The position numbers were made by a program, and so were the translations under genes. Under the pieces are notes generated by a model. The model worked only from the letters and a program-made list of their open reading frames with translations. It did not search any database and was not told the origin of the DNA. This document shows, one piece after another, positions 1,047 through 49,540 of a stretch of DNA of 64,000 nt; position 1 is the first letter of the stretch, and every line of letters begins with the position of its first letter. This DNA comes from Gammaproteobacteria bacterium (GTDB taxonomy: Bacteria; Pseudomonadota; Gammaproteobacteria; SZUA-140). The DNA is taken from NCBI GenBank assembly GCA_016712635.1, contig JADJQS010000006.1, positions 511,216 to 575,215 of the forward strand, read 5' to 3'.

Positions 1047-1165
1047 TGAGGAGAGAGGCGTGAGGAGTGAGGCGTAAGAGAATAAGATGTAATCATCCTG
1101 GCGAGGGGAGCTTCCCTGATTCCAGGTTTTTCGCGCCTAGCACCTCACCCCTCACGCCTCACGTT
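1047..1165. repeat. Heptamer-arm palindromic element copy A. Left arm GTGAGG(A/C) repeats, loop of about 60 nt, right arm CCTCAC repeats.
   Basis: gtgaggagagaggcgtgaggagtgaggcg ... cacctcacccctcacgcctcacg read directly. Starts 1 nt after the serA stop. Confidence 0.8.
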
Positions 1166-1178
1166 TACTGGATCTGAA

Positions 1179-2288
1179 ATGTCCGAAGACGCGAAACTGA
1201 AGTCCATCCGCGCGCGCATCGATCAGATCGACGGGAAGCTGCAGGATCTGATCAGCGAGCGGGCCCGCTGCGCGCTCGAGGTGGCGCGGCTGAAGCAGAC
1301 ATCCGGCGACCTCGACTACTATCGGCCGGAGCGCGAGGCACAGGTCCTGCAGACCGTGATCGGTCGCAATCAGGGTCCGCTCGACGACGAGGTCGTGGCG
1401 CGCCTGTTCCGGGAGATCATGTCGGCCTGCCTGGCGCTGCAGCGTCCGATCGCCGTCGCCTACCTTGGGCCGGAAGGAACGTACACCGAGGCTTCGGTCT
1501 TCAAGCATTTCGGCCAGGAGGTGACGGCACGGCCTCTCGCCGCCATCGACGAGGTTTTCCGCGATGTCGAGGCGGGCGCCGTCGACTACGGCGTGGTCCC
1601 GATCGAGAATTCCTCTGAAGGGGCGGTCGACCACACGCTCGACATGTTCATGAGCTCGCCGCTCAAGATCTGCAGCGAGATCGAGCTGCGCATCCACCAC
1701 AACCTGCTGGGCAAGGCCGCGGACCTGGGTACCGTGAACCGGGTCTACGCGCATCAGATGGCGCTGGCGCAATGCCGCGAGTGGCTCAATGCGCACCTCT
1801 CCGGCGTCGAATGCGAGGCGGTCAGCAGCAATGCCGGGGCCGCGCGGCGCGCGCAGGACGAACCGGGCGCCGCGGCCATCGCCGGCGTCAATGCGGCCGC
1901 CATCTACGGACTGGATATCCTGGCGGCGAATATCGAGGACAAACCGGACAACACCACCCGCTTCCTGGTGATCGGGCGCAAGATCCCCGCGCCGAGCGGA
2001 CGGGACAAGACGTCACTGCTCGTCTCGACCACCAACCGGCCCGGCGCGCTCTTCCGGCTTTTGAAACCACTGGCCGAGCATGGTATTTCGATGACGCGCA
2101 TCGAATCACGGCCGTCGCGGCGGGAAATGTGGGAATATGTGTTCTTCATCGACATCGAGGGGCACGCGCAGGAAGAGAAGGTGGCCTCGGTGATCGGGAT
2201 CCTGGAAAATGAGGCCGCCATGCTCAAGGTGCTCGGTTCGTATCCGTGTGCGGTAGGGGACGGATTTCAAATCCGTCCCCATAAATGA
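1179..2288 (+). CDS. pheA: Bifunctional chorismate mutase / prephenate dehydratase with C-terminal ACT domain.
   Basis: N-terminal chorismate-mutase coiled-coil region, PDT domain (ESRPSRRE...), ACT domain. The last ~11 aa (GDGFQIRPHK) are encoded by a hairpin repeat. Confidence 0.9.
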   Translation: MSEDAKLKSIRARIDQIDGKLQDLISERARCALEVARLKQTSGDLDYYRPEREAQVLQTVIGRNQGPLDDEVVARLFREIMSACLALQRPIAVAYLGPEGTYTEASVFKHFGQEVTARPLAAIDEVFRDVEAGAVDYGVVPIENSSEGAVDHTLDMFMSSPLKICSEIELRIHHNLLGKAADLGTVNRVYAHQMALAQCREWLNAHLSGVECEAVSSNAGAARRAQDEPGAAAIAGVNAAAIYGLDILAANIEDKPDNTTRFLVIGRKIPAPSGRDKTSLLVSTTNRPGALFRLLKPLAEHGISMTRIESRPSRREMWEYVFFIDIEGHAQEEKVASVIGILENEAAMLKVLGSYPCAVGDGFQIRPHK

Positions 2289-2320
2289 GTCTGGGACAGA
2301 TTTTAATCTGTCCCAGACAC
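2256..2320. repeat. Two tandem GGGAC(A/G)GAT-family hairpins (ggggacggatttcaaatccgtcccc and ctgggacagattttaatctgtcccag). The first overlaps the pheA 3' end.
   Basis: Perfect 10-bp stems with TTCAAA / TTTTAA loops read directly. Likely terminator / REP-like. Confidence 0.7.
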
Positions 2321-2333
2321 CTTAATTAATCGG

Positions 2334-3362
2334 GTGCAACAAATGATCGTCATCATGAAGGCCAATTCGACCGACGCGCAGATCGAAGCCGTAGAGGGCC
2401 ATCTGCGCTCGCTCGGACTGCAGCCCCACACCTCGCGCGGCATGCAGCGCACCGTCGTCGGAGCGATCGGCGACGAACGCGAGATCGACCTTGACCGTGT
2501 CGGGGTGCTGGACGGCGTCGAGCGCGTCGTGCGCGTGATGAAGCCCTACAAGTTCGTCTCGCGCGAGTCGCACGAGCGCGATTCGGTCATCGACGTGAAG
2601 GGCATCCCGATCGGCGGCAGGACGATCCAGATCATCGGCGGACCCTGCTCGGTGGAGACGCCGGAACAGATGGAGGCCGCCGCCGCCGGCGTTGCCGCGG
2701 CCGGCTGCCGCCTGATGCGCGGCGGTGCCTTCAAGCCGCGCACCAGCCCGTATGCCTTCCAGGGCAAGGGCGTCGAAGGGTTGAGCATGTTCAAGGAGGC
2801 CGCGGGGCGCCACGGGCTGCCCATCGTCACCGAACTGATGGACGTGCGCATGCTGGATGTATTCCTGGAGCACAAGGTCGACGTGATCCAGATCGGCACG
2901 CGCAACATGCAGAACTTCGACCTGCTGAAGGAGGTCGGACGCAGCACCCACACCCCGGTGATCCTCAAGCGCGGCCTGTCGGCGACGATTTCCGAATGGC
3001 TGATGGCGGCCGAGTACATCGCCGCCGGCGGCAACCACAACATCATCTTCTGCGAACGCGGCGTGCGCACCTTCGAGGACGCCTATCGCAACATGCTCGA
3101 CGTCACCGCCGTGCCGATGCTGAAGCGCGAGACCCACCTGCCGGTGCTGATCGATCCCAGCCACGCCGGCGGCAAGGCCTGGATGGTGCCGGCGCTGTCG
3201 CGCGCGGCGATCGCCGCCGGCGCGGACGGCCTGCTGGTGGAGATGCATCCCAATCCGCCCGCGGCGTGGTCGGACGCCGACCAGGCGCTCAATCCCCAGG
3301 AACTCGCCGCCCTGATGGGTGAGCTGCGCGGCATCGCAAGTGTGCTCGGACGCGAGCTCTGA
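2334..3362 (+). CDS. 3-deoxy-7-phosphoheptulonate (DAHP) synthase, class I-beta (KDO8P/DAHP family) with an N-terminal ferredoxin-like regulatory domain.
   Basis: Translation shows the N-terminal regulatory domain followed by a TIM-barrel with the GPCSVE and KPRTSPY motifs typical of Thermotoga/Aquifex-type DAHPS. Confidence 0.8.
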   Translation: MQQMIVIMKANSTDAQIEAVEGHLRSLGLQPHTSRGMQRTVVGAIGDEREIDLDRVGVLDGVERVVRVMKPYKFVSRESHERDSVIDVKGIPIGGRTIQIIGGPCSVETPEQMEAAAAGVAAAGCRLMRGGAFKPRTSPYAFQGKGVEGLSMFKEAAGRHGLPIVTELMDVRMLDVFLEHKVDVIQIGTRNMQNFDLLKEVGRSTHTPVILKRGLSATISEWLMAAEYIAAGGNHNIIFCERGVRTFEDAYRNMLDVTAVPMLKRETHLPVLIDPSHAGGKAWMVPALSRAAIAAGADGLLVEMHPNPPAAWSDADQALNPQELAALMGELRGIASVLGREL

Positions 3363-3400
3363 CGCGCCTTGCCAGGCCGACCGACCATTGCGCCCCGAAC

Positions 3401-4297
3401 ATGTCCCCTGACGCGCCAACCAGACGGCTGACCATCATCGGCGTCGGCCTGATCGGCGGATCGCTGGCGCGGGCGCTCAGGCGCGCATTCCCCGGCACCG
3501 AGATCATCGGCTCCGGGCGCCAGTTGCCCAACCTGCGGCGTGCGCTGGAGCTCGGCGTCATCGACCGCCACGAGACCGATCCGGCGCGCGCGGTAGAAGG
3601 AGCGGATCTGGTCGTGATTGCCGTACCGGTCGGGGCGATCGAATCCGTATTCGCCGCGATCGACGGGCATCTCGCGGCGGACGCGGTCATCACCGATGTC
3701 GGCAGTACGAAAGGCAATGTGGTCAGCTCTGCGCGGCGACGGCTCGGCGATCACCTGGCCGACTTCGTTCCCGGGCACCCGATCGCGGGCACGGAGCGCA
3801 GCGGCGTCGAGGCCTCGTTCGCCGAGCTGTTTCACGGCTGCCGGGTGATCCTGACGCCGCTCTCCGAGACGCGCCGCGCGGCGGTCGAACGCGTGCGCGC
3901 CGTATGGGAATGCGCCGGTGCGCGCGTGACCGAGATGGACGTGCGGCATCACGACGAGGTCCTGGCCGCCACCAGCCATCTGCCGCACCTGCTGGCCTAT
4001 ACGCTGGTCGACACCCTGGCGCGCATGGACGACAGCGAGGAGATCTTCGATTATGCCGCCGGCGGCTTCCGCGACTTCACGCGGATCGCCTCGTCGGACC
4101 CGGTGCTGTGGCGCGACATCTGCCTGGCCAATCGTGAGGCGATGCTCGGCATACTCCAGCGCTTCAGCGCAGACCTTGCCGGCATAGCCGAGGCCGTGCG
4201 CCGCGCCGACGGCGATCAACTGATGAAGGTGTTCGCGCACGCGAAGGAAGTGCGGGACCGGTTTTCCAAGAAAGGAACAGTGAGGAGTGAGGAGTGA
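3401..4297 (+). CDS. tyrA: Prephenate / cyclohexadienyl dehydrogenase.
   Basis: IIGVGLIGGSLARAL Rossmann motif and PDH domain. The stop lies within the repeat (..VRSEE*). Confidence 0.85.
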   Translation: MSPDAPTRRLTIIGVGLIGGSLARALRRAFPGTEIIGSGRQLPNLRRALELGVIDRHETDPARAVEGADLVVIAVPVGAIESVFAAIDGHLAADAVITDVGSTKGNVVSSARRRLGDHLADFVPGHPIAGTERSGVEASFAELFHGCRVILTPLSETRRAAVERVRAVWECAGARVTEMDVRHHDEVLAATSHLPHLLAYTLVDTLARMDDSEEIFDYAAGGFRDFTRIASSDPVLWRDICLANREAMLGILQRFSADLAGIAEAVRRADGDQLMKVFAHAKEVRDRFSKKGTVRSEE

Positions 4298-4378
4298 AGT
4301 GTGAGGCGCATAATATGGTGAGTGATATTGAGCATATTTCCTGTGTCGCCTCACTCCTCACGCCTAACGCCTCACCAA
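4280..4378. repeat. Heptamer-arm element copy B between tyrA and aroA.
   Basis: agtgaggagtgaggagtgaagtgtgaggcg ... gcctcactcctcacgcctaacgcctcacc. Supplies the tyrA stop codon. Confidence 0.8.
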
Positions 4379-4385
4379 TGCTGCG

Positions 4386-5762
4386 ATGACCACGAAAGAA
4401 CACATCTTCGATATCAGCCCCGGCGGCCGTCTAACCGGCGACATCCGCGTCCCCGGCGACAAATCCATCTCGCACCGCTCCATCATGTTCGGTTCGCTGG
4501 CGGAGGGCGTGACCGAAGTGGAAGGATTCCTCGAGGGCGAGGACAGCCTGGCGACCCTGGCGGCGTTTCGCCGCATGGGGGTCGTCATCGACGGGCCCGA
4601 ACGGGGCAGGGTCACCATTCACGGCGTCGGCCTGCGCGGCCTGCGGGCGCCCGATGGCCCGCTCGATCTAGGCAACTCCGGCACATCGATGCGTCTCATG
4701 TCTGGCCTGCTCATCGCGCAAGCTTTCGACACGGAACTGACCGGCGACGCCTCGCTGTCACGCCGGCCGATGCGCCGTGTGACGCAGCCGCTGGCATCGA
4801 TGGGGGCGCGCATCGAGACCGGGGATTCGGGTACGCCACCGCTGCGGATCCGTGGCGGATCCAGGCTGCACGGAGTGCGTTATGACATGCCGGTGGCGAG
4901 CGCCCAGGTCAAGTCAGCGCTGCTGCTTGCCGGACTCTATGCCGAAGGGGAGACCTGCGTGACCGAGCCCGCGCCGACGCGCGACCATACCGAACGCATG
5001 CTCACCGCCTTCGGCTATCTGGTCACGCGCCACCACAACACGGTCTGTGTGAAAGGGGGAGGTAGACTCAATCCGACCCGCATCGAGATCCCGGCGGACA
5101 TATCCTCGGCGGCATTCTTTATGGTCGGCGCCGCGATCGCGCCGGATTCTGACGTGACGCTGACAGGCGTCGGCATCAACCCGACACGCATCGGGGTCAT
5201 CAATATCCTGCAGCAGATGGGCGCGCGGATCGAGTTGATCGACAAACGCATGTACGGCGGCGAACCGGTGGCCGACCTGCGCGTGCGCACGAGCGCCCTC
5301 AAGGGGATCGAGATCCCGCTTGAACAGGTCCCGCTGGCGATCGACGAATTTCCCGCCCTCTTCATCGCCGCGGCCTGCGCCGAAGGGCGGACGGTCCTGG
5401 CCGGCGCGGAGGAACTGCGCGTCAAGGAGAGCGACCGCATCCAGGTCATGGCTGACGGGCTGCAGCTGCTGGGCATTGATGCGGAACCGACACCGGACGG
5501 GATCATTATTCACGGAAAGGGCGGAGCCGATGCCAGGGGGACGGATGTAAAATCTGTCCCCGAGGATGAAGCGGTGTTTTCCGGCGGCGAGATCCAGAGC
5601 CACGGCGACCACCGCATCGCCATGGCCTTCGCCATAGCCGCACTGCGCGCCTCGAGTCCGATCCGCGTCCGTGACTGCAAGAATGTCGATACCTCGTTCC
5701 CGGAGGTTGTGGAGTTGGCAAGGGGGGCAGAGCTGGGGGTACGTATGAGGGGTGAGGCGTGA
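4386..5762 (+). CDS. aroA: 3-phosphoshikimate 1-carboxyvinyltransferase (EPSP synthase). At 458 aa it is longer than typical; it contains a hairpin-derived internal insertion and a repeat-derived C-terminal tail.
   Basis: Conserved LGNSGTSMRL, RPMRR and HGDHRIAMAFA motifs. An internal GGGGACGGAT..ATCTGTCCCC hairpin sits at about 5535-5561 in frame. The tail ..VRMRGEA* is encoded by the repeat. Confidence 0.9.
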   Translation: MTTKEHIFDISPGGRLTGDIRVPGDKSISHRSIMFGSLAEGVTEVEGFLEGEDSLATLAAFRRMGVVIDGPERGRVTIHGVGLRGLRAPDGPLDLGNSGTSMRLMSGLLIAQAFDTELTGDASLSRRPMRRVTQPLASMGARIETGDSGTPPLRIRGGSRLHGVRYDMPVASAQVKSALLLAGLYAEGETCVTEPAPTRDHTERMLTAFGYLVTRHHNTVCVKGGGRLNPTRIEIPADISSAAFFMVGAAIAPDSDVTLTGVGINPTRIGVINILQQMGARIELIDKRMYGGEPVADLRVRTSALKGIEIPLEQVPLAIDEFPALFIAAACAEGRTVLAGAEELRVKESDRIQVMADGLQLLGIDAEPTPDGIIIHGKGGADARGTDVKSVPEDEAVFSGGEIQSHGDHRIAMAFAIAALRASSPIRVRDCKNVDTSFPEVVELARGAELGVRMRGEA

Positions 5763-5855
5763 GGAGTGAGGAGAAAGAGTACGTCGAGTGGATTCAGCCT
5801 TCTGCCAATCAGATTCCGGTTTTTCGCCTCACGCCTACCCCTCACGCTTCACCTG
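5745..5855. repeat. Heptamer-arm element copy C between aroA and cmk.
   Basis: atgaggggtgaggcgtgaggagtgagg ... cgcctcacgcctacccctcacgcttcacc. Confidence 0.8.
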
Positions 5856-5898
5856 TAGTTTCGATATATAATGCAGTAAGTTACACTGAATTCTTGAT

Positions 5899-6585
5899 AT
5901 GGATACTCAAGACAAGGCGCCAGTCATCACGGTCGACGGTCCCGGCGGAGTCGGGAAGGGGACGGTCAGCCGGATCCTGGCCGGCAGGCTGGGCTGGCAC
6001 TTGCTCGACAGCGGCGCCCTCTATCGCCTGGTCGGCCTGAGCGCGCTGAGACGGGGTGTTGCACTCGCGAACGAGGCGGCGGTGGCCGCGCTCGCCATGA
6101 ATCTGGATGTGAATTTCACCGGTAACAGCGATGAGAACGCGGTTATCACTCTTGGTAACGCCGACGTGAGCGATGCAATCCGCGCTGAAAATGTCGGATC
6201 GGCCGCTTCCCGGGTCGCCGCCTTGCCCGCCGTTCGCCAGGCCTTGCTGGAGCGGCAGCGCCGGTTTCGCCAGCCCCCGGGGCTCGTGGCCGATGGCCGC
6301 GATATGGGGACAGTGGTCTTTCCGGATGCCCAGCTCAAGGTGTTTCTCCAGGCCAGCCCGGATGAGCGCGCATCAAGGCGCTATAAACAGTTGAAGGACA
6401 AGGGAATCAGTGTTAGTCTAAGTGCCCTTCTGAAGGAAATTGAAGAACGTGACATGCGGGACAGCGGTCGTCGGATAGCACCGATGAAGCCGGCAGAGGG
6501 CGCCGTCATGATCGATACCACCCATATGGGTATCGAAGAAGTGGTGGACAGTATCCTGCAGGCGTGGGAAATCCGCACGTCATGA
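5899..6585 (+). CDS. cmk: Cytidylate kinase.
   Basis: P-loop [11 protein letters not shown]. Conserved position upstream of rpsA. Confidence 0.9.
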
Positions 6586-12858: not shown

Positions 12859-14388
12859 ATGATCATCCAACCGGTCATCCTGTCAGGCGGCTCGGGTACC
12901 CGTCTGTGGCCGCTGTCGCGGGAACATTATCCCAAGCAGTTACTGGCCCCTGTCAGCGACCTGACCCTGCTGCAGTCCACTGTCAACCGCCTGGATCACC
13001 TTGAGGCGATGCAGGATGTCCGGATCGCCGCCCCGCTGGTCATCTGCAACGAGGAACACCGTTTTCTGGTGGCCGAGCAATTACGCCAACTGGGTAAGCC
13101 GCCTGGCCAGATCCTGCTCGAGCCGGTCGGACGGAATACCGCGCCGGCGGCCACCCTGGCGGCCCTGCATGCCGGGGACAGGGGCGCCGTGCTGTTGATC
13201 ATGCCGGCCGACCACCTGATACGCGACGAGGCGGCCTTTAGCCGGGCTGTAATCATTGGTGCGCGGCTGGCTTCGGCTGGCCAGGTCGTCACCTTCGGTA
13301 TCCTGCCGACACGCGCCGAGACCGGTTATGGCTACATCCACAAGGGCGCTGCCCTTGCGGGTGAGGCGTCAGGCGCGAGGCGTGAAGCGGTAGGGAAGGG
13401 AGCACTTTCACCTGACACCTCTCGCCTGACGCCTCACCTCATAGAACAGTTCGTTGAAAAGCCGGATGCCGCCACGGCGCAATCCTATCTCGACTCCGGA
13501 GAATATCTCTGGAACAGCGGCATCTTCATGGTGCGCGCCGCGGTGTGGCTGGAAGCGATCATGCGCCACCGCCCGGACATTTATTCCGCTGCGGAGCAGG
13601 CGTACACGAGCGGCAAGCAGGACGGAGACTTCTACCGCGTGGACAAGAAACTGTTCGCCACGTGCCCCAGCGACTCCATCGACTACGCCGTCATGGAAAA
13701 GCTCACCGCCTCCATCTCCTCACCCCTCACGCCTGACGCCTCACCGATAACCGCGGCGGTGATCCCGCTGGATGCCGGCTGGTCGGACGTCGGCGCCTGG
13801 TCCAGCCTGTGGGAGGTCTCGCCGCAGGACGCCGACGGCAATATCCTGCGTGGCGACGTCATCGCTGAAGACACTCGCAATTCCCTCCTGTACGCCGAGC
13901 ACCGCCTGCTCGCCGGCGTAGGCCTTGATAACATTATTGCGATCGAGACCGCCGACGCCATCCTGGTCGTGCACAAGGACAAGGCGCAGAACGTGAAGGA
14001 TATCGTCGCCCACCTGAAGAAGCAGGGGCGCAGCGAGCACCAGATCCACCGCCGCGTACATCGTCCATGGGGCAGCTACGAAGGCATTGACAAGGGGGAA
14101 CGTTTCCAGGTCAAGCGTATCACGGTCAAGCCGGGTGCTTCGCTCTCCCTGCAGATGCACCACCATCGCGCCGAGCACTGGATTGTCGTGAAGGGGACCG
14201 CCCGCGTCGTGCGCGGGGACGATGAATTCCTGCTCAGTGAAAACGAGTCCACCTATATCCCGATCGGGGTCACCCACCGCCTGGAGAATCCGGGAACGCT
14301 CCCGCTCGAACTGATCGAGGTTCAGTCGGGATCATATCTTGGGGAAGACGATATCGTCAGGTTCGAGGATCACTACGGAAGGAAGTGA
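12859..14388 (+). CDS. manC: Bifunctional mannose-1-phosphate guanylyltransferase / mannose-6-phosphate isomerase (ManC/CpsB type). Carries two in-frame repeat-derived insertions.
   Basis: N-terminal nucleotidyltransferase (ILSGGSGTRLWPLS) and C-terminal cupin (QMHHHRAEHWIVV). 509 aa versus about 480 typical. Confidence 0.9.
   Translation: MIIQPVILSGGSGTRLWPLSREHYPKQLLAPVSDLTLLQSTVNRLDHLEAMQDVRIAAPLVICNEEHRFLVAEQLRQLGKPPGQILLEPVGRNTAPAATLAALHAGDRGAVLLIMPADHLIRDEAAFSRAVIIGARLASAGQVVTFGILPTRAETGYGYIHKGAALAGEASGARREAVGKGALSPDTSRLTPHLIEQFVEKPDAATAQSYLDSGEYLWNSGIFMVRAAVWLEAIMRHRPDIYSAAEQAYTSGKQDGDFYRVDKKLFATCPSDSIDYAVMEKLTASISSPLTPDASPITAAVIPLDAGWSDVGAWSSLWEVSPQDADGNILRGDVIAEDTRNSLLYAEHRLLAGVGLDNIIAIETADAILVVHKDKAQNVKDIVAHLKKQGRSEHQIHRRVHRPWGSYEGIDKGERFQVKRITVKPGASLSLQMHHHRAEHWIVVKGTARVVRGDDEFLLSENESTYIPIGVTHRLENPGTLPLELIEVQSGSYLGEDDIVRFEDHYGRK
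13360..13440 (+). repeat. Complete heptamer-arm element inserted in frame inside manC (about 81 nt, encodes GEASGARREAVGKGALSPDTSRLTPHL).
   Basis: ggtgaggcgtcaggcgcgaggcgtgaagcg..cctgacacctctcgcctgacgcctcacctc. TGA triplets of the left arm are mutated or out of frame. Confidence 0.75.
13727..13746 (+). repeat. Right-arm (CCTCAC) fragment in frame inside manC (encodes SSPLTPDASP).
   Basis: tcctcacccctcacgcctgacgcctcacc. The corresponding segment is absent from typical ManC between the MEK and VIPLDAGWSD blocks. Confidence 0.65.
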
Positions 14389-14566
14389 GGCGTGAGGGGG
14401 CAGGTGTGAGGCGAAAATACTAACTATGGGAGGTCTGATTAATTCGTCATGCCCGCGCAGGCGGGCATCCAGGTCCTTGAATTACTGGTTTCCCGCTTTC
14501 GCGGGAATGACAACCAGGTAATTATTCAGGTTTCCCTAACGCCTAACACCTAACGCCTCACCAACA
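14385..14566. repeat. Composite element between manC and gmd. Heptamer-arm element (arms at 14385-14418 and 14535-14566) with a CCCGC double-hairpin element nested in its loop (14446-14511).
   Basis: agtgaggcgtgagggggcaggtgtgaggcg ... gtcatgcccgcgcaggcgggcat..ttcccgctttcgcgggaatgac ... cctaacgcctaacacctaacgcctcacc. Confidence 0.8.
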
Positions 14567-15664: not shown

Positions 15665-15667
15665 AAT

Positions 15668-15703
15668 ATGTGAAGTGTGAGGAGTGAGGTGTTAGGCGTA
15701 TGA
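15668..15703. repeat. Left arm of the heptamer element that carries the four-helix-bundle gene.
   Basis: tgtgaagtgtgaggagtgaggtgttaggcg immediately after the gmd stop. Confidence 0.7.
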
Positions 15704-15733
15704 GCTTACAGAATTTCCACGGAGGGAAATCCA

Positions 15734-16096
15734 ATGAGCAGAATACATCACGGACTCTTGGCGTGGCAGCACGCTATGAAGTTTGTAAAGGATATTTATG
15801 AGGTCACATCGGCATTCCCAAAATGTGAAATGTACGGGCTGACAAGTCAAATGAGGCGTGCCGCGGTTAGCGTGCCATCCAACATCGCGGAAGGTGCCGG
15901 AAGGGCCAGTTTCAGGGAGTTTGGGCAATTTCTCACGATAGCTCGTGGCTCTCTGTGCGAGCTCGAGACCCAGGTTGTCCTGGCTAAAGAGTTAGGCTAT
16001 ATCGCAGAGAACGATGATTTACTATCCAAAATGGAAAAACTGTTCGCTTTACTGGGTGGACTGATCAATTCTATCGGGAAACGATATCAGCAATGA
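15734..16096 (+). CDS. Four-helix-bundle protein (23S rRNA intervening-sequence protein / Avd-like family). Low-GC cargo inside the repeat element.
   Basis: 120 aa. [46 protein letters not shown] are hallmark motifs. Local GC is visibly lower (about 47%) than the neighbours. Confidence 0.8.
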
Positions 16097-18630: not shown

Positions 18631-18648
18631 ATTATTTAGGAGTTCATC

Positions 18649-35505: not shown

Positions 35506-35559
35506 GATAATGGCGAAAATAATCTTCAGTTGCATGCCCACTATTCAAGAGACATGTGA

Positions 35560-36744
35560 ATGATCATAGGCGTAATTCTCATCACGTTTTGTACGGCAGG
35601 ACTTGTAACTTATCTTCTGACACATGCTAGCGGTCGATTTCAGATAATAGATTACCCTAATAACCGCTCTCTTCATAGCACACCTATCCTACGTACTGGC
35701 GGACTGGCGATCTGGGCTGGGATGATCACTGGAACCGCAACTGTAGTCCTGATGCTTGAATGGAAGTACGAAATCGCATGGATTGCATGTGCGGCGACTG
35801 TCGTCGGACTTGTCTCGTTCTTCGATGACCGCGCACACGTCCCGGCATATATCAGATTAGCTATCCATCTCATCGCCGCTGCATTGTTATTGAGCGGACA
35901 GTTGGATCTGACATCGATTGAAATTCCTGGTATCAGCACCGAATTGGCCCTCGGAACAGGAATGTTGATTATTGCGCTGTTCATCACCTGGAATATCAAT
36001 CTGTACAACTTTATGGATGGAATGGACGGCATTGCAGGCGGCATGACGATAGCCGGTTTTGTAACTCTGGGGCTGCTCGGTCATCTCGCGGGCGATGACT
36101 ATTACGCGGTGATCTGCTGGGTAATCGCCGCCGCTTCTGCAGGTTTCCTGGTATGGAACTTCCCGCCTGCGCGGATATTCATGGGCGATGTCGGATCATC
36201 CACCTTGGGTCTGCTGGTTGCCGCGATGTCTCTATGGGCGGATCGGGCCGATCTTTTCCCGCTTTGGCTGTCCGTCCTCATCTTTTCTCCTTTTGTGGTT
36301 GACGCCACCCTGACGCTCGCGCGCCGGACCCTGAAAGGCGAACGCATCTGGGAGGCGCATCGCGATCATTACTACCAGCGCCTGGTCCGGGCGGGATGGA
36401 GCCATCGCCGTACTGTCTTGTGGGAATATGGCCTGATGGTGATATGCAGTGCCTGCGCACTGCTGGCCTTTCACGCGCCCGTGGTGATGCAATGGTCGAT
36501 CCTGGGGGCGATGGCGTGCGTTTATATTGCAGCGATAGTTGCGGTGCGCCGTATCGAGGTGCGTAGAGCGATCGGGCAGGGTTCAGAAGTTCCTCGTAGC
36601 TCATACGTGGAGGATTTTTGGATGGAAACCCTACTGGGCAATCTATCGTGTTCTACTGAAGTATTAGTCCGAATATCCAATATCCCTTCGTTTCAGATTC
36701 AAATTAACATCCGGGTTGTATTGCAGTACAATACGCGCCACTGA
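35560..36744 (+). CDS. wbpL: Undecaprenyl-phosphate HexNAc-1-phosphate transferase (WbpL/WecA, MraY-like GT family). The C-terminal end of the model is uncertain.
   Basis: Multi-TM. NLYNFMDGMDGIAGG and FMGDVGSSTLG motifs. Confidence 0.8.
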   Translation: MIIGVILITFCTAGLVTYLLTHASGRFQIIDYPNNRSLHSTPILRTGGLAIWAGMITGTATVVLMLEWKYEIAWIACAATVVGLVSFFDDRAHVPAYIRLAIHLIAAALLLSGQLDLTSIEIPGISTELALGTGMLIIALFITWNINLYNFMDGMDGIAGGMTIAGFVTLGLLGHLAGDDYYAVICWVIAAASAGFLVWNFPPARIFMGDVGSSTLGLLVAAMSLWADRADLFPLWLSVLIFSPFVVDATLTLARRTLKGERIWEAHRDHYYQRLVRAGWSHRRTVLWEYGLMVICSACALLAFHAPVVMQWSILGAMACVYIAAIVAVRRIEVRRAIGQGSEVPRSSYVEDFWMETLLGNLSCSTEVLVRISNIPSFQIQINIRVVLQYNTRH

Positions 36745-36797
36745 AGCTTCAATAATAAAAAAACCCAAACCAAATCAGTCAGTACGGTTGGGATTAT

Positions 36798-38681
36798 ATG
36801 GTCCAAGAGGAAAAGGCTTTGGCAGCAAGACGCCGTGTGGCAATTGTTGTACATGATATAAGCATGGTCGCGGCTGCCTGGTTTCTGGCATACCTGACCC
36901 GCTATAACTTCAATATTCCAGCAGTAGTCTGGCCCATCCTGGGGCAAACCCTGCCCTTGGTATTGGCGATACAGGGTCTGATCCTGTGGCGTTTCGGCCT
37001 CTACCGCGGGGTGTGGCGTTTCGCCAGCATACCCGACCTGTGGAACATCATCCGGGCCGTGGCGATCGGTGTATTCATCGTCGCTCTGGTGGAATTCCTG
37101 GTCAACCGGCTGGAAGGCATACCCCGCACGATACTCCTGCTCTACCCGGTATACCTCGTGCTTTTCCTGGGTGCGCCGCGCCTGACTTATCGCATCTGGA
37201 AAGATTACCGCCTCGGCTTACTGAACGGTGCCGACCGCAAGCGGGTGCTGATCCTGGGCGCCGGCCGGGCAGGGGAGATGCTGGCCCGCGACATGCGGCG
37301 CGACGGGAGCTACCAGCCGATCGGCTTCCTTGACGATCAACCCTCCCTCAGAGGATCCAAGGTGCACGACCTGCCGGTGCTGGGCGTAATCGAACGCCTG
37401 CCCGAAGTCGTCCATAGTCATGCCCTGGATCTGGTCATCATCGCGCTGCCATCGGCGACCAATAACCAGATGCGGCGGGTGGTGGAGATCTGCGAGCGGG
37501 CGGAGGTTGAATTCCGCACACTGCCGCGCCTGCAGGACCTGGTCTCGGGGCAGCCCACCGTCTCCGAGCTGCGCGAGGTCAAGATCGAAGACCTGCTCGG
37601 ACGCACGCCTATCACCCTGGACTGGAACCGCATCAGCAAGGGCCTGGCCGGACAGACGGTGCTGGTGAGCGGCGGCGGCGGGTCGATCGGCTCCGAGCTG
37701 TGCCGCCAGATCGCGCGCCTGCGGCCCGCCGCCCTGGTCCTGTTCGAGAACAACGAGTACAACCTGTTCGAGATCGAGCGCGAGCTGCGCGGCAAGCATC
37801 CCAACCTGGTGCTGCACGCCTATCTCGGCGACGTGCGCGACCGTGCCTCGGTGGTGCGCGCCTTTGAACGCTTCCAGCCCCAGGTCGTTTTCCATGCCGC
37901 CGCCTACAAGCATGTCCCCATGCTGGAATCCCAGGCCCGGGAGGCGGTGCGCAACAACGTGCTCGGCACCCGCCTGATGGCGCAGACCGCCGACCGTTTC
38001 GGCTGTAACGCCTTTGTCATGATCTCCACCGACAAGGCCGTGAACCCGGCCAACGTCATGGGCGCAACCAAGCGGGTGGCGGAGATCTACTGCCAGGCCT
38101 TCGCCCAGCGTTCGCGCACCCGCTTCATCACGGTGCGCTTCGGCAACGTCCTCGGCTCCGCCGGGAGTGTGATCCCGATCTTCCAGCAGCAGATCAAGGC
38201 CGGCGGGCCGGTGACCGTGACCCACCCGGACATCACGCGCTACTTCATGACCATTCCGGAGGCGGCGCAGCTCATCATGCAGGCGGCGGTAATGGGCGAG
38301 GGCGGGGAGATCTTCGTGCTCGACATGGGCGAGCCGGTCCGGATCGGATACCTGGCCGAGCAGATGGTCCGCCTGTCCGGCAAGACCCCCGGCGAGGACA
38401 TAGAAATCGTCTATACCGGGCTCCGGCCCGGCGAAAAATTCTACGAGGAATTGTTTTACGCGCAGGAGCAATATAAATCCACCGGGCATGATAAAATCCT
38501 GCTCGCGCATTCCGTCGTGGTGGACTGGCCCCTCCTGACGGCCGACGTGCGCGCAATCGAGGAAGCGGTGGAGCAGTATGATGAGGGGGAGGTTCACCGC
38601 CTGCTCGAACGGATTGTACCTGAGCTCGCCGCTCAACAATCGGTTTCCAATGTCATCCCCTTCGAACGTGCGAGCGTATGA
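36798..38681 (+). CDS. wbpM: Membrane-anchored UDP-GlcNAc 4,6-dehydratase (WbpM/CapD/PglF family).
   Basis: N-terminal 4-5 TM, then VLVSGGGGSIGSELCRQ Rossmann and MISTDKAVNPANVMGATKR. 627 aa. Confidence 0.85.
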   Translation: MVQEEKALAARRRVAIVVHDISMVAAAWFLAYLTRYNFNIPAVVWPILGQTLPLVLAIQGLILWRFGLYRGVWRFASIPDLWNIIRAVAIGVFIVALVEFLVNRLEGIPRTILLLYPVYLVLFLGAPRLTYRIWKDYRLGLLNGADRKRVLILGAGRAGEMLARDMRRDGSYQPIGFLDDQPSLRGSKVHDLPVLGVIERLPEVVHSHALDLVIIALPSATNNQMRRVVEICERAEVEFRTLPRLQDLVSGQPTVSELREVKIEDLLGRTPITLDWNRISKGLAGQTVLVSGGGGSIGSELCRQIARLRPAALVLFENNEYNLFEIERELRGKHPNLVLHAYLGDVRDRASVVRAFERFQPQVVFHAAAYKHVPMLESQAREAVRNNVLGTRLMAQTADRFGCNAFVMISTDKAVNPANVMGATKRVAEIYCQAFAQRSRTRFITVRFGNVLGSAGSVIPIFQQQIKAGGPVTVTHPDITRYFMTIPEAAQLIMQAAVMGEGGEIFVLDMGEPVRIGYLAEQMVRLSGKTPGEDIEIVYTGLRPGEKFYEELFYAQEQYKSTGHDKILLAHSVVVDWPLLTADVRAIEEAVEQYDEGEVHRLLERIVPELAAQQSVSNVIPFERASV

Positions 38682-43867: not shown

Positions 43868-44536
43868 ATGGTGCTTCCGTATAAGCTTCTCGTGTTCGAC
43901 TGGGATGGGACCTTGATGGATTCGGAGGCGCGCATCGTCAGTTGCCTGTCGATGACCTTATCCGATCTCGCCTTGCCCGCGCTCGGGCGCGATGAACTGC
44001 TCAACGTGATCGGGCTCGGACTGCCGGAGGCGGTTGCCACGCTGCTGCCGGAGGCCGATGCGGGACTGATCCGCCGCTTCATCGATCGTTACCGTTACCA
44101 TTTCCTGTCCGACCATCACGCCGCCGCGGTTTTGTTCCCGGGTGCGAAGGAGACCCTCACCGCGCTCGATCGCCGCGGCTACCTGCTGGCGGTTGCAACC
44201 GGCAAGGGCAGACGGGGGCTGGACCAGTCCCTGGAGGACACCGGCTGCGGCGGCCTGTTCTCGCTCTCGCGTTGCGCGGATGAAACCGCTTCCAAGCCGA
44301 ATCCGCGTATGCTGATCGAGATCATGGATGTGCTCGGCATCGCCCCGGACGAGACCCTGATGATCGGCGATACCGAATATGACATGCAGATGGCGCACAA
44401 TGCGGGCGCGCGCGCGCTGGCGGTGAGCTACGGCGTCCATGCGCGTGAACGCCTGCTCGCCTGCGAACCGCTCGGGTGCCTGGACGTGATCACCGATATA
44501 CTTCCCTGGCTCGAAGGCGTGAGGCGTGAGGCGTGA
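43868..44536 (+). CDS. HAD-superfamily hydrolase (phosphoglycolate-phosphatase-like).
   Basis: LLVFDWDGTLMDS motif I, VATGKGRRG, MIGDTEYDM. The C-terminus (..VRREA*) and stop are contributed by the heptamer array. Confidence 0.7.
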   Translation: MVLPYKLLVFDWDGTLMDSEARIVSCLSMTLSDLALPALGRDELLNVIGLGLPEAVATLLPEADAGLIRRFIDRYRYHFLSDHHAAAVLFPGAKETLTALDRRGYLLAVATGKGRRGLDQSLEDTGCGGLFSLSRCADETASKPNPRMLIEIMDVLGIAPDETLMIGDTEYDMQMAHNAGARALAVSYGVHARERLLACEPLGCLDVITDILPWLEGVRREA

Positions 44537-44722
44537 GGCGTGAGGCGTGAGGCGTGAGGCGTGAGGCGTGAGGCGTGAGGCGTGAGGCGTGAGGCGTGAG
44601 GCGTGAGGCGTGAGGCGACAAGAGTTTGCTCGCCGCATTTTCCTTGTCCAGCACTTTTTTAAATTAGTATTTTTCTTCTTTTACCCCTAACTCCTCATCC
44701 CTCACGCCTAACCGAATACCCT
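44515..44722. repeat. Heptamer element copy K. A pure (GTGAGGC) array of about 14-15 units, a roughly 70-nt AT-rich loop and a CCTCAC right arm, upstream of sppA.
   Basis: gaggcgtgaggcgtgagg... x14 then gacaagagtttgctcgccgcattttccttgtccagcacttttt..ttttacccctaactcctcatccctcacgcctaacc. Confidence 0.85.
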
Positions 44723-44776: not shown

Positions 44777-45784
44777 ATGTCTGACGAGAACAAACAGCAG
44801 GATCCATGGCTGGGTGAGGCGCAGGCGCCGCGCGCAGGTAACGGCAAGCAGGGCGCCGTGGAAGAGACGTGGGCACGCAGCGTGCTGGAAACGCTGGTAC
44901 AGGCTACCCTCAAGGAGCAGCGCAGCGCCCGCCGCTGGGGTGTCTTTTTCAAGCTGATGTTCCTCGGATATCTGTTTCTGATCCTGTACACCTACTGGCC
45001 GGGGAAGCTGGTCGACGAGAGCCTGTCGGGCCGGCATACCGCCCTGATCGACATCAACGGCGTAATCGCCGAGGACCGCGACGCCAGTGCGGACTACATC
45101 GTCGACAGCCTGCGTGAAGCCTTCGACAACAAGCACGCCGCCGCCATCCTGCTGCGTATCAACAGCCCCGGCGGCAGCCCGGTGCAGTCGGGCTATGTCA
45201 ACGACGAGATCGCGCGCCTGCGCGCGCAGCATCCCGACAAGAAGGTGTACGCCGTGATCACCGACATCTGCGCCTCCGGCGGCTATTACATCGCGGCGGG
45301 CGCTGACGAGATCTACGCGGACAAGGCAAGCATCGTGGGCTCCATCGGCGTGCTGATGGACGGCTTCGGTTTCGTGCAGACGCTCGACAAGCTCGGCATC
45401 GAGCGCCGCCTGATCACGGCGGGCGAGAGCAAGGGCTTCCTCGATCCGTTCTCGCCGATGAAACCCGATGACGAACACCATATCCGCACGATGCTGGCGA
45501 ACATACACCAGCAGTTCATCGATACCGTGAAGAAGGGGCGCGGGGACCGCCTCAAGGACGATCCCAGCCTGTTCACCGGGCTGGTGTGGACCGGCGAGGA
45601 AAGCCTCAAGCTCGGCCTGGTCGACGGCCTGGGGAGCCCCAGCTACGTCGCGCGCGAAATCATCGGCGCGGAAGACATCATCGACTACACCTATCAGCCG
45701 CCGTACTTCCAGCGCTTCGCCGAACGCATCGGCGCAGCGGCGGCACAGGGAGTGGCGGGGATGCTGAAGGTGGAACTGAGGTGA
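44777..45784 (+). CDS. sppA: Signal peptide peptidase SppA (36K type, ClpP/crotonase fold).
   Basis: ICASGGYYIAAGADEIYADKASIVGSIGV catalytic Ser region. TM near the N-terminus. The stop TGA lies in the first repeat unit. Confidence 0.85.
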   Translation: MSDENKQQDPWLGEAQAPRAGNGKQGAVEETWARSVLETLVQATLKEQRSARRWGVFFKLMFLGYLFLILYTYWPGKLVDESLSGRHTALIDINGVIAEDRDASADYIVDSLREAFDNKHAAAILLRINSPGGSPVQSGYVNDEIARLRAQHPDKKVYAVITDICASGGYYIAAGADEIYADKASIVGSIGVLMDGFGFVQTLDKLGIERRLITAGESKGFLDPFSPMKPDDEHHIRTMLANIHQQFIDTVKKGRGDRLKDDPSLFTGLVWTGEESLKLGLVDGLGSPSYVAREIIGAEDIIDYTYQPPYFQRFAERIGAAAAQGVAGMLKVELR

Positions 45785-45968
45785 GGCGTGAGGCGTGAGG
45801 CGTGAGGCGTGAGGCGTGAGGCGTGAGGCGTGAGGCGTGAGGCGTGAGGCGTGAGGCGTGAGGCGACAAGAGTTTGCTCGCCGCATTTTCCTTGTCCAGC
45901 ACTTTTTGAATTAGTATTTTTGTTCTTTTACCCCTGACACCTCACCCCTCACGCCTCACGACTCACTC
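45781..45968. repeat. Heptamer element copy L. A (GTGAGGC) array of about 12 units plus the same loop and right arm as copy K, between the convergent 3' ends of sppA and maf.
   Basis: Near-identical loop to copy K (a few substitutions). The array is 2-3 units shorter. The right arm runs into the maf stop. Confidence 0.85.
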
Positions 45969-47288: not shown

Positions 47289-47474
47289 ATGGCGGTACAG
47301 AAATCCAAGAAATCCACTTCGCGGCGCGGCATGCGTCGCGCCCACGACAGCCTCACGGCGCCGACCTTGTCGATCGACCCCACTTCGGGTGAAACCCACC
47401 GCCGTCACCACGTGACGCCGGACGGCTATTACCGCGGCCGCAAGGTCATCGAGTCCAAGGAAGGGGAAGTCTAA
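47289..47474 (+). CDS. rpmF: 50S ribosomal protein L32.
   Basis: [20 protein letters not shown]. Confidence 0.9.
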
Positions 47475-47477
47475 GGC

Positions 47478-48503
47478 TTGAGTTTAACCATAGCCCTGGA
47501 CGCGATGGGCGGTGACCGCGGTCCTGCGGTAACCGTCCCGGCGTCGCTTTACGCCCTCAAGGACAATCCCGATCTGCACCTGATCCTGGTCGGCGACCAG
47601 CAGACGCTGCTGCACGAACTGCAGCAGCACAGCGCTTCGGTCGGCGATCGGCTCACGGTTCGGCATGCCTCGCAGCAGGTGAGCATGCAGGAGCTGCCGT
47701 CGCAGGCCCTGCGCACCAAGAAGGATTCCTCCATGCGGGTGGCGATCAACCTCGTCAAGGAGGGCGCGGCCGCCGCCTGCGTCAGCGCGGGCAATACGGG
47801 CGCGCTGATGGCCACCGCGCGCTATGTGCTGAAGACCCTGCCCGGGGTGGAGCGGCCGGCCATCATCTGCGCCCTGCCCACCATGCGCGGCCATACCCAT
47901 ATGCTCGATCTCGGGGCGAATGTCGACTCCAGTCCCGACCACCTGTTCCAGTTTGCCGTGATGGGCTCCGTGCTGACCAGCGCCGTCGACAGCATCGAGC
48001 GCCCCACCGTGGGACTGCTCAACATCGGGGAAGAGGAGATCAAGGGCAACGACCGGGTCAAGGAGGCCGCGCGCATGATAGCCGAAAGCGGTATCATCAA
48101 TTACGCCGGTTTCGTCGAAGGCGACGATATCTACAAGGGCACCGTGGACGTCGTCGTGTGCGACGGATACGTCGGCAACGTGGCCTTGAAGACCAGCGAG
48201 GGCGTCGCCCGCATGATCACGCATTTCCTGCGCGAGGAATTCACCCGCTCGCCGCTGACGAAACTGATCGCACTGGCGGCGAAACCGGTGCTGCGCGGCT
48301 TCCGGCGCAAGATCGATCCGCGCCGTTACAACGGCGCCAGCCTGATCGGCCTGCAGGGCATCGTCGTGAAAAGCCACGGCAGCGCGGACGAGGTTTCGTT
48401 CGCGAACGCGATCAAGGAAGCCGTGCTGGAAGTCAGGAAAAACATACCGCAACGCATCGGCAGCCAGCTCGAGGCGTTGCTGCTGGCCAGGAAGGCGGGC
48501 TGA
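47478..48503 (+). CDS. plsX: Phosphate acyltransferase PlsX (TTG start).
   Basis: [10 protein letters not shown]-terminus. 341 aa. Confidence 0.9.
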
Positions 48504-49468
48504 TGTACGCGCGCATCACGGGCACGGGCGGCTATCTGCCCGCCAGGGTGCTGTCCAACGCCGAACTCGAGCGTATGGTCGACACCACCGACCAGTGGAT
48601 CGTCGAGCGCACCGGCATCCGCACGCGTCATATCGCCGCCCATGGCGAGACCACCTGCGACTTGGCCGAGGCCGCGGCGCGCCGTGCGATCGAGGCAGCA
48701 GGCCTCGTGCCCGCCGACATCGACCTCATCATCGTCGCGACCACCACGCCGGACAAGGTGTTTCCCAGCACGGCCTGCCTGCTCCAGCAGCGGCTCGGCA
48801 TCCACGGTCCCGCCGCCTTCGACATCCAGGCCGTGTGCACCGGTTTCGTCTACGCACTCAGCGTGGCCGACAAGTTCATCCGCACCGGCAGCGCGCGCTG
48901 CGCACTGGTCGTCGGCGCTGACACCCTTTCGCGCATCATCGACTGGCAGGACCGGTCCACCTGCGTCCTGTTCGGCGACGGTGCCGGCGCGGTGGTCCTG
49001 GAGGCGGCCGCGGAGCCCGGCATCCTGTCGACGCACCTGCACGCCGATGGCCAGTACCAGGAGATGCTGATGGTTCCCGAAGGCGTCTCGCAGGGTTATG
49101 AAAGCGTGCAGGAAGGCAGCGCATTCATCAAGATGCAGGGCGGCGAGGTATTCAAATTCGCGGTGAACTCCCTGGAACAGCTCGTCGACGAGACGCTGGT
49201 GGCCAACGGAATGCAACGGGACGACATCGACTGGCTGGTCCCGCACCAGGCCAATATCCGCATCATCACCGCCACCGCGCGCAAGCTGAAGATGTCCATG
49301 GAGCGCGTCGTCGTGACCGTGGATACCCATGGCAACACCTCGGCGGCGTCGATACCCCTCGCGCTCGACGTCGCCGTTCGCGACGGCCGCATCAAGCGCG
49401 GCGAGACCCTGCTGTTCGAGGCTGTCGGCGGCGGCTTCACCTGGGGTTCTGCGCTGGTTAAATATTAG
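48503..49468 (+). CDS. fabH: 3-oxoacyl-ACP synthase III.
   Basis: The internal start [13 protein letters not shown] overlaps the plsX stop. The upstream 115 codons of the ORF-track model are spurious. Cys-His-Asn active-site context. Confidence 0.9.
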
Positions 49469-49540
49469 TGAGGCGTGAGGCGAGAGGCGTGAGGGGTAAA
49501 TTCTTTTTTCCGCCTCACACCTCACTCCTGACGCCTCACC
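49467..49540. repeat. Compact heptamer-arm element copy M between fabH and fabD.
   Basis: tagtgaggcgtgaggcgagaggcgtgagg ggtaaattcttttttcc gcctcacacctcactcctgacgcctcacc. Confidence 0.8.

Follow-up and report, generated by a model that had tools for sequence, protein, structure and literature searches.

Palindromic elements built of tandem heptamers recur through a 64-kb stretch of contig JADJQS010000006.1 (hereafter, the window), which belongs to a metagenome-assembled genome of an uncultured gammaproteobacterium. Pfam searches resolve two blocks of genes around them. The first runs from serA (initially called pheA), pheA, an aroF-type DAHP synthase gene, tyrA, aroA, cmk, and rpsA onward to manC, gmd, an open reading frame (ORF) of family PF05635, fcl, gmhB, gmhA, and cysC; the second comprises rluC, a HAD gene, sppA, maf (minus strand), yceD, plsX, fabH, and fabD. 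All but one of the elements have arms of the heptamer GTGAGGN facing its complement NCCTCAC, which we call family A. As comparison material, we used loci from relatives and two short independent contigs (labeled L001, L002, L125, L126, L241, L242, and L123); the independent assembly L123 matches window positions 15160 to 17153 at 98.8% identity.

The heptamers are strongly enriched. When up to 1 mismatch is allowed, the window contains 57 occurrences of the two-unit pattern GTGAGGCGTGAGG, versus 0.12 expected from shuffles. A detector of 7-nt periodicity that uses no motif found 14 tracts, whereas periods 5, 6, and 8 to 11 gave 0 to 1 and 20 shuffles gave 0. Tandem Repeats Finder likewise gives numerous arrays of period 7, among them perfect arrays with 14.7 and 12.1 units. 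An earlier note on this DNA, made from the sequence alone, had named 13 element sites with a shared two-arm architecture. Every site exists, and the enrichment, the period-7 tracts, and the hairpin folds described below bear out a genuine palindromic family, but only 10 sites are complete left-arm/loop/right-arm elements; the other 3 are solo right arms. The arms are also more uniform than the 2 to 15 units first described: the canonical arm has exactly four heptamers (28 nt), as in 23 of 32 arms from the window and the close relatives L001 and L125, and only two left arms in the window are expanded (14 and 12 units). Among arms from ∼120 loci of many phyla, 58 have 4 units, versus 18 with 5. 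The loops of the window elements range from 17 to ∼400 nt and are mostly unrelated to each other.

In the first gene block, the serA-pheA spacer holds a complete family-A element at 1046 to 1163 (4 GTGAGGN units, a 63-nt loop, and an NCCTCAC arm; −56 kcal/mol, z −5.4), the first G of which is the last base of the serA TAG. Elements of the same kind occupy the tyrA-aroA spacer (4280 to 4376, z −5.8), where tyrA continues for 18 nt into the left arm before ending at the unit 3 TGA, and the aroA-cmk spacer (5745 to 5853, z −3.3), where the unit 3 TGA is the aroA stop and the loop has a homolog in L001. Two copies lie within manC on the plus strand: a complete 78-nt hairpin (13361 to 13438; −50.1 kcal/mol, z −6.9), which adds 26 codons in frame, and a solo right arm of 4 NCCTCAC units (13718 to 13745), which encodes SSPLTPDASP and is common to the relatives, the L125 copy being longer by 3 units (21 nt). 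The manC stop is then the TGA of unit 1 of the complete element in the manC-gmd spacer (14385 to 14562), whose loop carries two nested GC-rich hairpins resembling repetitive extragenic palindromic (REP) sequences. The gmd-fcl spacer contains a gene-carrying element on the plus strand (15670 to 16126), in which a 4-unit left arm, a Shine-Dalgarno (SD) sequence, the PF05635 ORF, and a 4-unit right arm follow one another; gmd ends 5 nt upstream of it. Another solo right arm, conserved in relatives, lies in frame inside fcl (16814 to 16841, plus strand). The arms near 18506, noted earlier as variants, are real, and they belong to a complete element of a second family, B (GGACTGA/TCAGTCC), in the gmhA-cysC spacer (18503 to 18632, right arm at 18600 to 18632; −51.6 kcal/mol, z −7.6), with the gmhA stop being a TGA inside its left arm. 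Finally, a solo family-A right arm at 19318 to 19345, with no recognizable left arm, lies 8 nt upstream of the start of a CitMHS-type transporter gene.

The second block contains three complete family-A elements. The HAD-sppA element (44519 to 44713) has a left arm of 14 perfect units, the third of which provides the HAD stop (TGA). The element at 45781 to 45967 (left arm of 12 perfect units; z −8.5) separates the convergent genes sppA (plus) and maf (minus), and its two arms terminate both: sppA ends at the TGA in unit 1 of the left arm, and maf ends in unit 1 of the right arm on the other strand. The fabH-fabD element (49468 to 49540; −45.4 kcal/mol, z −8.2) is minimal, with 4 + 4 units and a 17-nt loop, and the fabH TAG ends on the G that opens it.

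Taken singly, an arm repeats its heptamer in direct orientation and lacks self-complementarity; RNA folding turns every complete element into one long hairpin (z −3.3 to −8.5). Position downstream of stop codons and GC-rich stems would suit intrinsic transcription terminators or attenuators, an idea to which we give almost no weight: the right arm is not followed by a T-run, none of the elements coincides with a terminator-like site, the number of terminators is what chance would give, and the elements lie inside operons upstream of essential genes and sometimes inside ORFs. At the base of the hairpin loops, we observed that GTAARAG (GTAAAAG, GTAAGAG, and GGAAAAG) tends to sit directly inside the last left-arm unit in families A and B (for example, window 1074 to 1080 and 18534 to 18540; L125 8685 to 8691 and 9965 to 9971), and that the right arm is preceded by its complement CTTTTAC or a T-run. 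The conserved inner junction is common to gene-carrying and gene-less copies.

The elements occupy gene 3′ ends, and the arm often supplies the stop, as the earlier note had proposed from eight cases. Stop contact is seen for all eight (serA, tyrA, aroA, manC, gmhA, HAD, sppA, and fabH) and, on the minus strand, for maf. We scored an arm as following this rule when an open frame of ≥120 codons is closed within −9 to +25 nt of the arm start. This is so for 20 of the 30 arms from the window and its close relatives and for 69 of 150 arms (46%) in the ∼120 loci from other genomes, compared with ∼3% of random positions. The commonest stop offsets, +1, +8, and +15, are the TGAs of units 1 to 3. Such placement may come about either by targeting or by survivorship. 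Upstream stops lie 0 to 5 nt from the arm or inside it, and downstream starts lie 9 to 64 nt past the right arm. Comparison of orthologous spacers points the same way. A distant relative, L242 (83% rpsA identity), has empty sites between serA/pheA, tyrA/aroA, and aroA/cmk, with only 2 to 5 nt between the genes. Relative to these, the window element at serA begins at the ancestral stop and the C terminus VRVID is conserved; at tyrA and aroA, the stops have been replaced by the element and the proteins run a few codons into the arm (+GTVRSEE in tyrA).

With a T-N-A (mostly TGA) in every unit and a period of 7, three units suffice to close all three frames. Closure of all frames on either strand means that an insertion cannot create long fusion proteins, which explains how the elements are tolerated in tightly coupled operons of essential genes; it also means that inside ORFs only the complementary arm or a left arm whose in-frame TGA is mutated survives. 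The complementary arm was described as free of stops in every frame. This holds for the consensus, and the right arm is usually open in all frames and has been absorbed into the coding sequence of manC, fcl, and the fcl N terminus, but the variants CCTGAC and CCTAAC contain TGA or TAA. The copies at 13361 to 13438, 13718 to 13745, and 16814 to 16841 are all in-frame parts of manC or fcl. In the manC hairpin, the single in-frame TGA has been changed to TCA, and the facing unit reads CCTGAC.

Elements in the same spacers differ between related genomes. Relatives at 92 to 97% rpsA identity have hairpins in the same spacers as the window, and a single genome contains several heptamer families: A (GTGAGGN), B (ACTNAGG), C (GGTNATG), and, in L241, D (GTTAAAA). 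In the manC-gmd spacer, the window has an element of family A, L125 one of family B, and L002 one of family C, and each time the first unit supplies the stop (TGA, TAA, and TAA, respectively). In the tyrA-aroA spacer of L002, an old A-type arm, now coding, forms the tail of tyrA and is followed by a C-type hairpin, an arrangement that indicates nesting or replacement. Since different families occupy the same spacers of related genomes, turnover is rapid. In the orthologous serA-pheA elements of the window and L001, the arms are ∼80% conserved and the loops share ∼50% identity, versus 91 to 93% in the flanks. The elements at 44519 and 45781, by comparison, share a loop and right arm at ∼95% identity, with the similarity ending exactly at the outer end of the arm, which is a signature of whole-unit duplication. 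Some spacers hold an element in one relative and none in others (gmhB-gmhA in the window and the three L242 sites), so the elements are dispensable.

Family-A arms also extend far beyond these relatives. An exact three-unit GTGAGG pattern was found in at least 120 stretches of species-representative genomes, which belong to Planctomycetota, Bacteroidota, Cyanobacteria, Acidobacteriota, Campylobacterota, Chloroflexota, Gemmatimonadota, and several proteobacterial classes. Many of the matches listed from other phyla are again 4 + 4 hairpins with short loops. GTGAGGN arms are thus not lineage-specific.

One copy carries a gene. The sites near 15668 and 16098 are the two ends of the element at 15670 to 16126, which encloses a plus-strand ORF of 120 amino acids (15734 to 16096). 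Its product matches Pfam PF05635 (23S_rRNA_IVP; E value, 7.7e-37), TIGR02436 ("four helix bundle protein"), and PDB entry 2GSC (Xanthomonas XCC0516; E value, 8e-31), with a weak PHROG match to Avd of diversity-generating retroelements (DGRs); PADLOC gave no defense-system match for this ORF. With the gene overlooked, the link to cassettes of the intervening sequence (IVS) type had been missed. We take PF05635 to be the family of 23S rRNA IVSs, related to the DGR accessory protein Avd. To our knowledge, no enzymatic activity has been assigned to it, nor any role outside DGRs; a structure has been solved. Membership in HEPN was considered and dropped; the HEPN survey paper does not mention the family. 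The gene is closely interlocked with its neighbor: the ATG of fcl and the PF05635 stop codon overlap as ATGA (window 16093 to 16130), and the right arm encodes the first ∼12 codons of fcl, an arrangement also found in L125. The housekeeping gene fcl has thus gained an element-encoded N-terminal extension and is apparently coupled in translation to the cassette gene. In L125 and L126, the gmd-fcl spacer likewise has a PF05635 gene with family-A arms, though the protein is only 68% identical; in L002, it has a PF05635 pseudogene of another lineage between family-B arms.

PF05635 genes and heptamer arms are generally associated. The protein family is very large, with more than 7,900 relatives at E values of 1e-10 or better among 8,000 candidates scored. 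Using an alignment of 28 relatives, we fetched 80 metagenome loci, of which 65 had flanking sequence on both sides. Within 200 nt of the gene, a period-7 tract occurs upstream at 40 of the 65 loci, downstream at 42, and on both sides at 32. Tracts number 4.39 per kb near the ends of the PF05635 ORF, versus 0.19 per kb farther out in the flanks of these loci. Again, arms most often have 4 units. Upstream and downstream arms are reverse complements (heptamer distance of 0 to 1 in 38 of 51 loci, versus 8.5% between loci), while the heptamer itself varies by locus (GGTGAGT, CGGTGAA, CCGGTAG, CAGTGGT, GGGAATA, and GGTGATT). It covaries with the protein: pairs of PF05635 proteins share a heptamer always at ≥70% identity, in 42% of cases at 60 to 70%, and in 6 to 11% at 40 to 60%. 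As in the window, 59% of the outer arm ends of these cassettes adjoin the stop of a long ORF, versus 6.5% of random positions. On viral contigs, 22 of 30 PF05635 genes have a period-7 tract upstream and 14 of 30 have one on both sides.

Loop lengths are bimodal; most are <100 nt, and a minor mode at ∼380 to 450 nt holds the gene. A hidden Markov model search of the gene-less loops found no remnants of PF05635 ORFs. The loop of the serA-pheA element (1074 to 1110, …AATCATCCTGGCGAGGGGAGC) resembles the leader and SD sequence of the L002 pseudogene (18735 to 18780, …GATAATCCTGCGGGGAGGAGGC), a similarity that hints that this copy may be an ORF-deleted derivative and is too short for statistics. 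At four loci from other phyla (L048, L056, L069, and L117), inverted heptamer pairs enclose 230 to 275 nt without PF05635 similarity, which may be other cargo or decayed genes.

The gene family invites comparison with IVSs of 23S rRNA (Leptospira and Coxiella). The Coxiella 23S IVS encodes an S23p/PF05635 protein, and its 28-bp terminal stem is cut by RNase III (Warrier et al. 2016, PMC4990558); the same paper recalls an old proposal that the IVS ORF serves mobility. Both kinds of element carry this gene family in the loop, are transcribed within a host RNA, and end in inverted repeats, the 28-bp Coxiella stem matching the 4 × 7 = 28-nt arms described here. They differ in location, since IVSs replace the tetraloops of rRNA helices 9, 25, or 45, whereas the present elements sit at stops of mRNA operons or in ORFs, and in that RNase III excision has been demonstrated for IVSs, compared with a computed hairpin stability here. 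A search of the PF05635 loci for three conserved 23S rRNA motifs, which flank helix 45 or lie in the adjacent GTPase-associated-center region, gave only scattered matches with 1 or 2 mismatches; no locus had more than one motif, and in no case did motifs stand on both sides of an element. With no rRNA location found, what links the elements to IVSs is the common gene family and the 28-bp stem.

A simpler origin would be local simple sequence repeats (SSRs), produced by slippage beside stop codons, symmetrized by intra-hairpin repair, and kept as useful hairpins at cistron ends, for instance, for protection of mRNA 3′ ends or insulation of translation, with neither transposition nor a dedicated protein. 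Lengths do change by whole units (the arms of 14 and 12 units and the 3 additional in-frame units in L125 manC), the native aroA end of L242 has GTGAGCG as a possible seed, and heptamer SSRs are overrepresented in bacteria, which has been ascribed to polymerase slippage (PMC4692102). Yet slippage does not lead one to expect a strong tie to one gene family, the recurrence of one heptamer at >10 unlinked sites in 64 kb and across many phyla, or two copies with a common 70-nt loop and sharp outer boundaries. Three unrelated families coexist and replace each other at the same spacer, and the arm lengths have a sharp four-unit mode rather than a broad distribution. We consider an origin by slippage alone improbable.

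The heptamer architecture as such is not of an undescribed kind, contrary to what was first thought. In Xanthomonas, GGGAATC repeats show a preference for four units (28 nt) and form 70 to 75 convergent pairs per genome (Rehm et al. 2015, PMC4692102). About 90% are intergenic, lying on average 28 nt from the upstream ORF, much nearer than to the downstream ORF; two species have repeats in the same spacers, varying in sequence and length, and long perfect arrays occur occasionally (PMC4692102). The window elements thus share with them the 7-nt tandem unit, the four-unit mode, the convergent pairs, and the intergenic position near the upstream ORF. The difference is that GGGAATC has no stop in either orientation, whereas GTGAGGN supplies TGA. 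Their function was left as unknown and the number four was ascribed to G-quadruplexes, with no tie made to PF05635 or mobile elements (PMC4692102). In the supplementary table of that paper, repeat 15 (GGGAATC type, 4 units, 28 nt) adjoins XCC0516, which its authors do not remark on (PMC4692102). XCC0516 is the PF05635 protein of PDB 2GSC.

Repeats that form G-quadruplexes, to which PMC4692102 ascribes the four-unit preference, or that titrate a protein (as sites for CsrA or cold-shock proteins) would be another reading; units of family B (NAGGAC) hold the GGA core of CsrA sites, and CspB binds heptamers (cited in PMC4679880). However, the GGGAATC/GGGANTN quadruplex motif is absent from the window elements, as GTGAGGN has only GG runs, and GGTGATT, GTTAAAA, and CAACGTT have none and still show a mode of four; we therefore reject the quadruplex account of the four-unit rule. 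Units of family A are mostly GGC rather than GGA, and the motifs would be base paired within the hairpin. This explanation is very improbable.

Stop-supplying heptamers have been described as well. TAACTGA direct repeats of Beggiatoaceae and cyanobacteria have stops in all frames and overlap the upstream stop in 13 cases (MacGregor 2015, PMC4679880). Like the window elements, these and the short tandemly repeated repetitive (STRR) sequences are tandem heptamers, mostly intergenic, with a patchy occurrence across phyla that suggests horizontal spread, and family B (ACTGAGG) differs at one base from STRR1 read as its reverse complement (ACTGGGG). They differ in being mostly direct arrays just upstream of start codons, with one inverted pair in PMC4679880, in the heptamers themselves, and in having no reported gene association. 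Family-A elements, in turn, start at stops. The cyanobacterial STRR sequences were reportedly described by Mazel in 1990.

Other extragenic hairpins offer a different model. A REP is an imperfect palindrome of ∼35 nt, a REPIN consists of two inverted REPs, and the REP-associated tyrosine transposase (RAYT) is a Y1 HUH enzyme. REPs, bacterial interspersed mosaic elements (BIMEs), and the REPIN-RAYT system resemble the present elements in being extragenic hairpins at 3′ ends of operon genes with genome-specific families and, for REPIN-RAYT, in having many noncoding copies and few copies of a repeat-bracketed gene. The elements could accordingly be REP/REPIN-like or MITEs (miniature inverted-repeat transposable elements) moved by an enzyme encoded elsewhere, such as a RAYT-type Y1 transposase, with the PF05635 gene as cargo or neighbor; only 64 kb of the genome was examined, and the enzyme may lie outside it. 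We regard this as fairly improbable. The arms are tandem heptamers, and a single arm is not a palindrome, unlike a REP; the gene between the arms, a position that is diagnostic in the case of RAYTs, encodes a 120-amino-acid all-helical protein without known catalysis and belongs to PF05635 at dozens of unrelated loci, which between them have dozens of heptamers; and no PF01797-type transposase or insertion sequence (IS)-type ORF occurs in the window or the gene lists of the relatives. As for MITEs, the arms resemble terminal inverted repeats (TIRs), and a common interior is seen in the elements at 44519 and 45781 only, the other loops being unrelated. No direct repeats flank the elements, and the gene-carrying form encodes PF05635 and not a transposase.

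The remaining known families are more distant. Correia/nemis elements of Neisseria and enterobacterial repetitive intergenic consensus (ERIC) sequences of Yersinia also have TIRs that fold in transcripts, and Correia TIR hairpins are said, after work by De Gregorio in 2002, to be RNase III substrates. These and Rickettsia palindromic elements (RPEs) have a conserved internal sequence and target-site duplications (TA in Correia), lack tandem-heptamer ends, and share no apparent sequence similarity with the window elements. The likeness to RPEs suggested in the earlier note extends to in-frame insertion in ORFs (the copies at 13361, 13718, and 16814), but RPEs are known from Rickettsia only, whereas GTGAGGN elements are gammaproteobacterial and occur in many phyla; host range and the lack of an Rfam match, rather than a direct comparison with RPE consensus sequences, set the two apart. 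Nor do the elements look like integron attC sites: the arms are GTGAGGN rather than RYYYAAC … GTTRRRY, the neighbors are core housekeeping genes, and there is no integrase in the window. An Rfam scan of the whole window at gathering thresholds gave no match, including none to rRNA; a scan by E value of positions 900 to 6100 gave only chance-level matches to a microRNA and a snoRNA, and a scan for tRNA and transfer-messenger RNA found none. A literature search on the bare heptamer strings returned primer noise only.

On balance, we favor, with some reserve, a family of mobile, hairpin-forming, IVS-like cassettes with four-heptamer inverted ends, most of them gene-less. The full form would be a PF05635 gene between 28-nt inverted arrays of four heptamers, and most copies, including those at 12 of the 13 window sites, would be gene-less derivatives. 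The cassette would enter transcribed spacers exactly at the upstream gene's stop codon and close all frames there. Its arms may be recognized in trans by the cassette's own protein or, as RNA, by RNase III, as in rRNA IVSs. Gene-less copies would then depend on gene-carrying ones, in the autonomous/nonautonomous manner of RAYT/REPIN or IS/MITE pairs, and new copies may prefer existing hairpins or stop-codon sites.

Several observations weigh against this cassette model. A PF05635 gene is present at only 1 of the 13 window sites and at 1 of 120 GTGAGG-pattern loci elsewhere. Neither a transposase, a reverse transcriptase, nor another catalytic mobility gene was found within the 64-kb window, and no target-site duplications or direct repeats flank the elements, either in the window or in the L242 comparison. 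The correlation between protein and heptamer may in part be due to common ancestry of the hosts and not to cognate recognition, and slippage also shapes the arms, as the expansions to 12 and 14 units and the 3 extra units in L125 manC show. Efficient RNase III cleavage of the copy at 15670 would be harmful, as its right arm encodes the fcl N terminus. Moreover, while positions 1 to 6 of the units form Watson-Crick pairs between arms in 74 to 99% of cases, position 7 does so in only 47%; variation in arm sequence is one-sided, and changes at unit position 3 are uncompensated. In elements associated with plus-strand genes, A:C mismatches on the sense strand (20) outnumber G:U-compatible ones (7). 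This excess, together with the lack of compensation, gives no sign of selection on sense-RNA pairing, and it is the heptamer sequence itself that seems to be kept or regenerated.

The mismatch pattern bears equally on a host explanation, in which the hairpins are cis-regulatory RNAs, either RNase III or decay sites or devices that loop out the spacer and so preserve termination-reinitiation coupling, with mobility secondary. The hairpins fold very stably, the gene pairs at the empty sites are 2 to 5 nt apart, consistent with translational coupling, and several downstream genes (pheA and aroA) have no obvious SD sequence between the right arm and the ATG. A REP within 15 nt of a stop reportedly affects translation of the upstream gene (Liang, Rudd, and Deutscher, in 2015), an effect that would fit here. 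RNase III also cuts the 28-bp IVS stem in Coxiella (PMC4990558). Nevertheless, G:U is not in excess over A:C on the sense strand, there are no compensatory changes, and the in-frame copies in ORFs and the arm encoding the fcl N terminus are hard to square with obligatory cleavage. Spacers lacking the element in relatives (gmhB-gmhA and the three L242 sites) argue that it is dispensable. A host regulatory role as the primary explanation is unlikely.

A broader form of the cassette model is tentative, and we offer it as a possibility. PF05635 proteins may be the trans-acting partners of heptamer hairpins, and STRRs, GGGAATC repeats, GTGAGGN elements, and 23S IVSs may form one class of cassettes. 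Each PF05635 lineage would recognize its own heptamer array and mobilize it, home into it, or maintain it, with the four units per arm perhaps matching an oligomer of the protein. Such a class would be analogous to RAYT/REPIN, but with a non-HUH protein related to Avd. If true, this would tie together three puzzles: tandem heptamer repeats, known since 1990 (STRRs and those of Xanthomonas and Beggiatoa) without an explained origin or function; the role of PF05635; and the nature of rRNA IVSs, debated since the early 1990s. The repeats would be the ends of a gene-carrying cassette, sharing a common 28-nt arm, and the start-at-stop rule and frame closure would allow colonization of coupled essential operons and even of coding sequence. 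The hypothesis is testable in the cultivable Xanthomonas campestris (XCC0516 and GGGAATC repeats). We found no paper that treats PF05635-type proteins and heptamer repeats together, in a search that left out most subscription journals; what appears to be new is the GTGAGGN family with its occurrence in many phyla and, most of all, its link to cassettes of the PF05635/IVS type.

Within the window, the elements are spaced unevenly, clustering at 1 to 20 kb and 44 to 50 kb. No heptamer tract occurs in the last 14 kb (50000 to 64000), despite native GC content and ∼12 genes. A block of ∼15 kb (21500 to 36750) has 41 to 46% GC, compared with mostly ∼60 to 68% in the rest of the window, and contains genes for glycosyltransferases, a sulfotransferase, a polysaccharide deacetylase, methyltransferases, and epimerases, suggesting a horizontally acquired O-antigen or polysaccharide island. 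It has 0 heptamer elements across ∼15 gene junctions.

Other repeats are present as well. A second hairpin repeat, GGGACAGATTTT(A/T)ATCTGTCCC, occurs at 2293 to 2314 and 19271 to 19292, just past the pheA and cysC stops, and related GGGGACGGATTTCAAATCCGTCCCC hairpins lie in the pheA-aroF spacer of relatives (L001 5695 to 5770 and L002 5475 to 5560); it has the look of a distinct REP-like family. GC-rich hairpins (TCCCGCTTTCGCGGGAATGAC, CCCCGCGAAAGCGGGGATCC, and GCCCGCGCAGGCGGGC) make up a third repeat, which lies at 14451 to 14511, nested in the loop of the 14385 element, and at 17140 to 17222, in a 175-nt insertion of the fcl-gmhB spacer. This insertion is absent from L125 and L002, in which the spacer is 14 nt long. 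Lastly, a 27-nt tandem repeat (2.3 copies, 71% match) lies at 36983 to 37043, at the 5′ end of a Polysacc_synt_2 (WbpM-like) gene.

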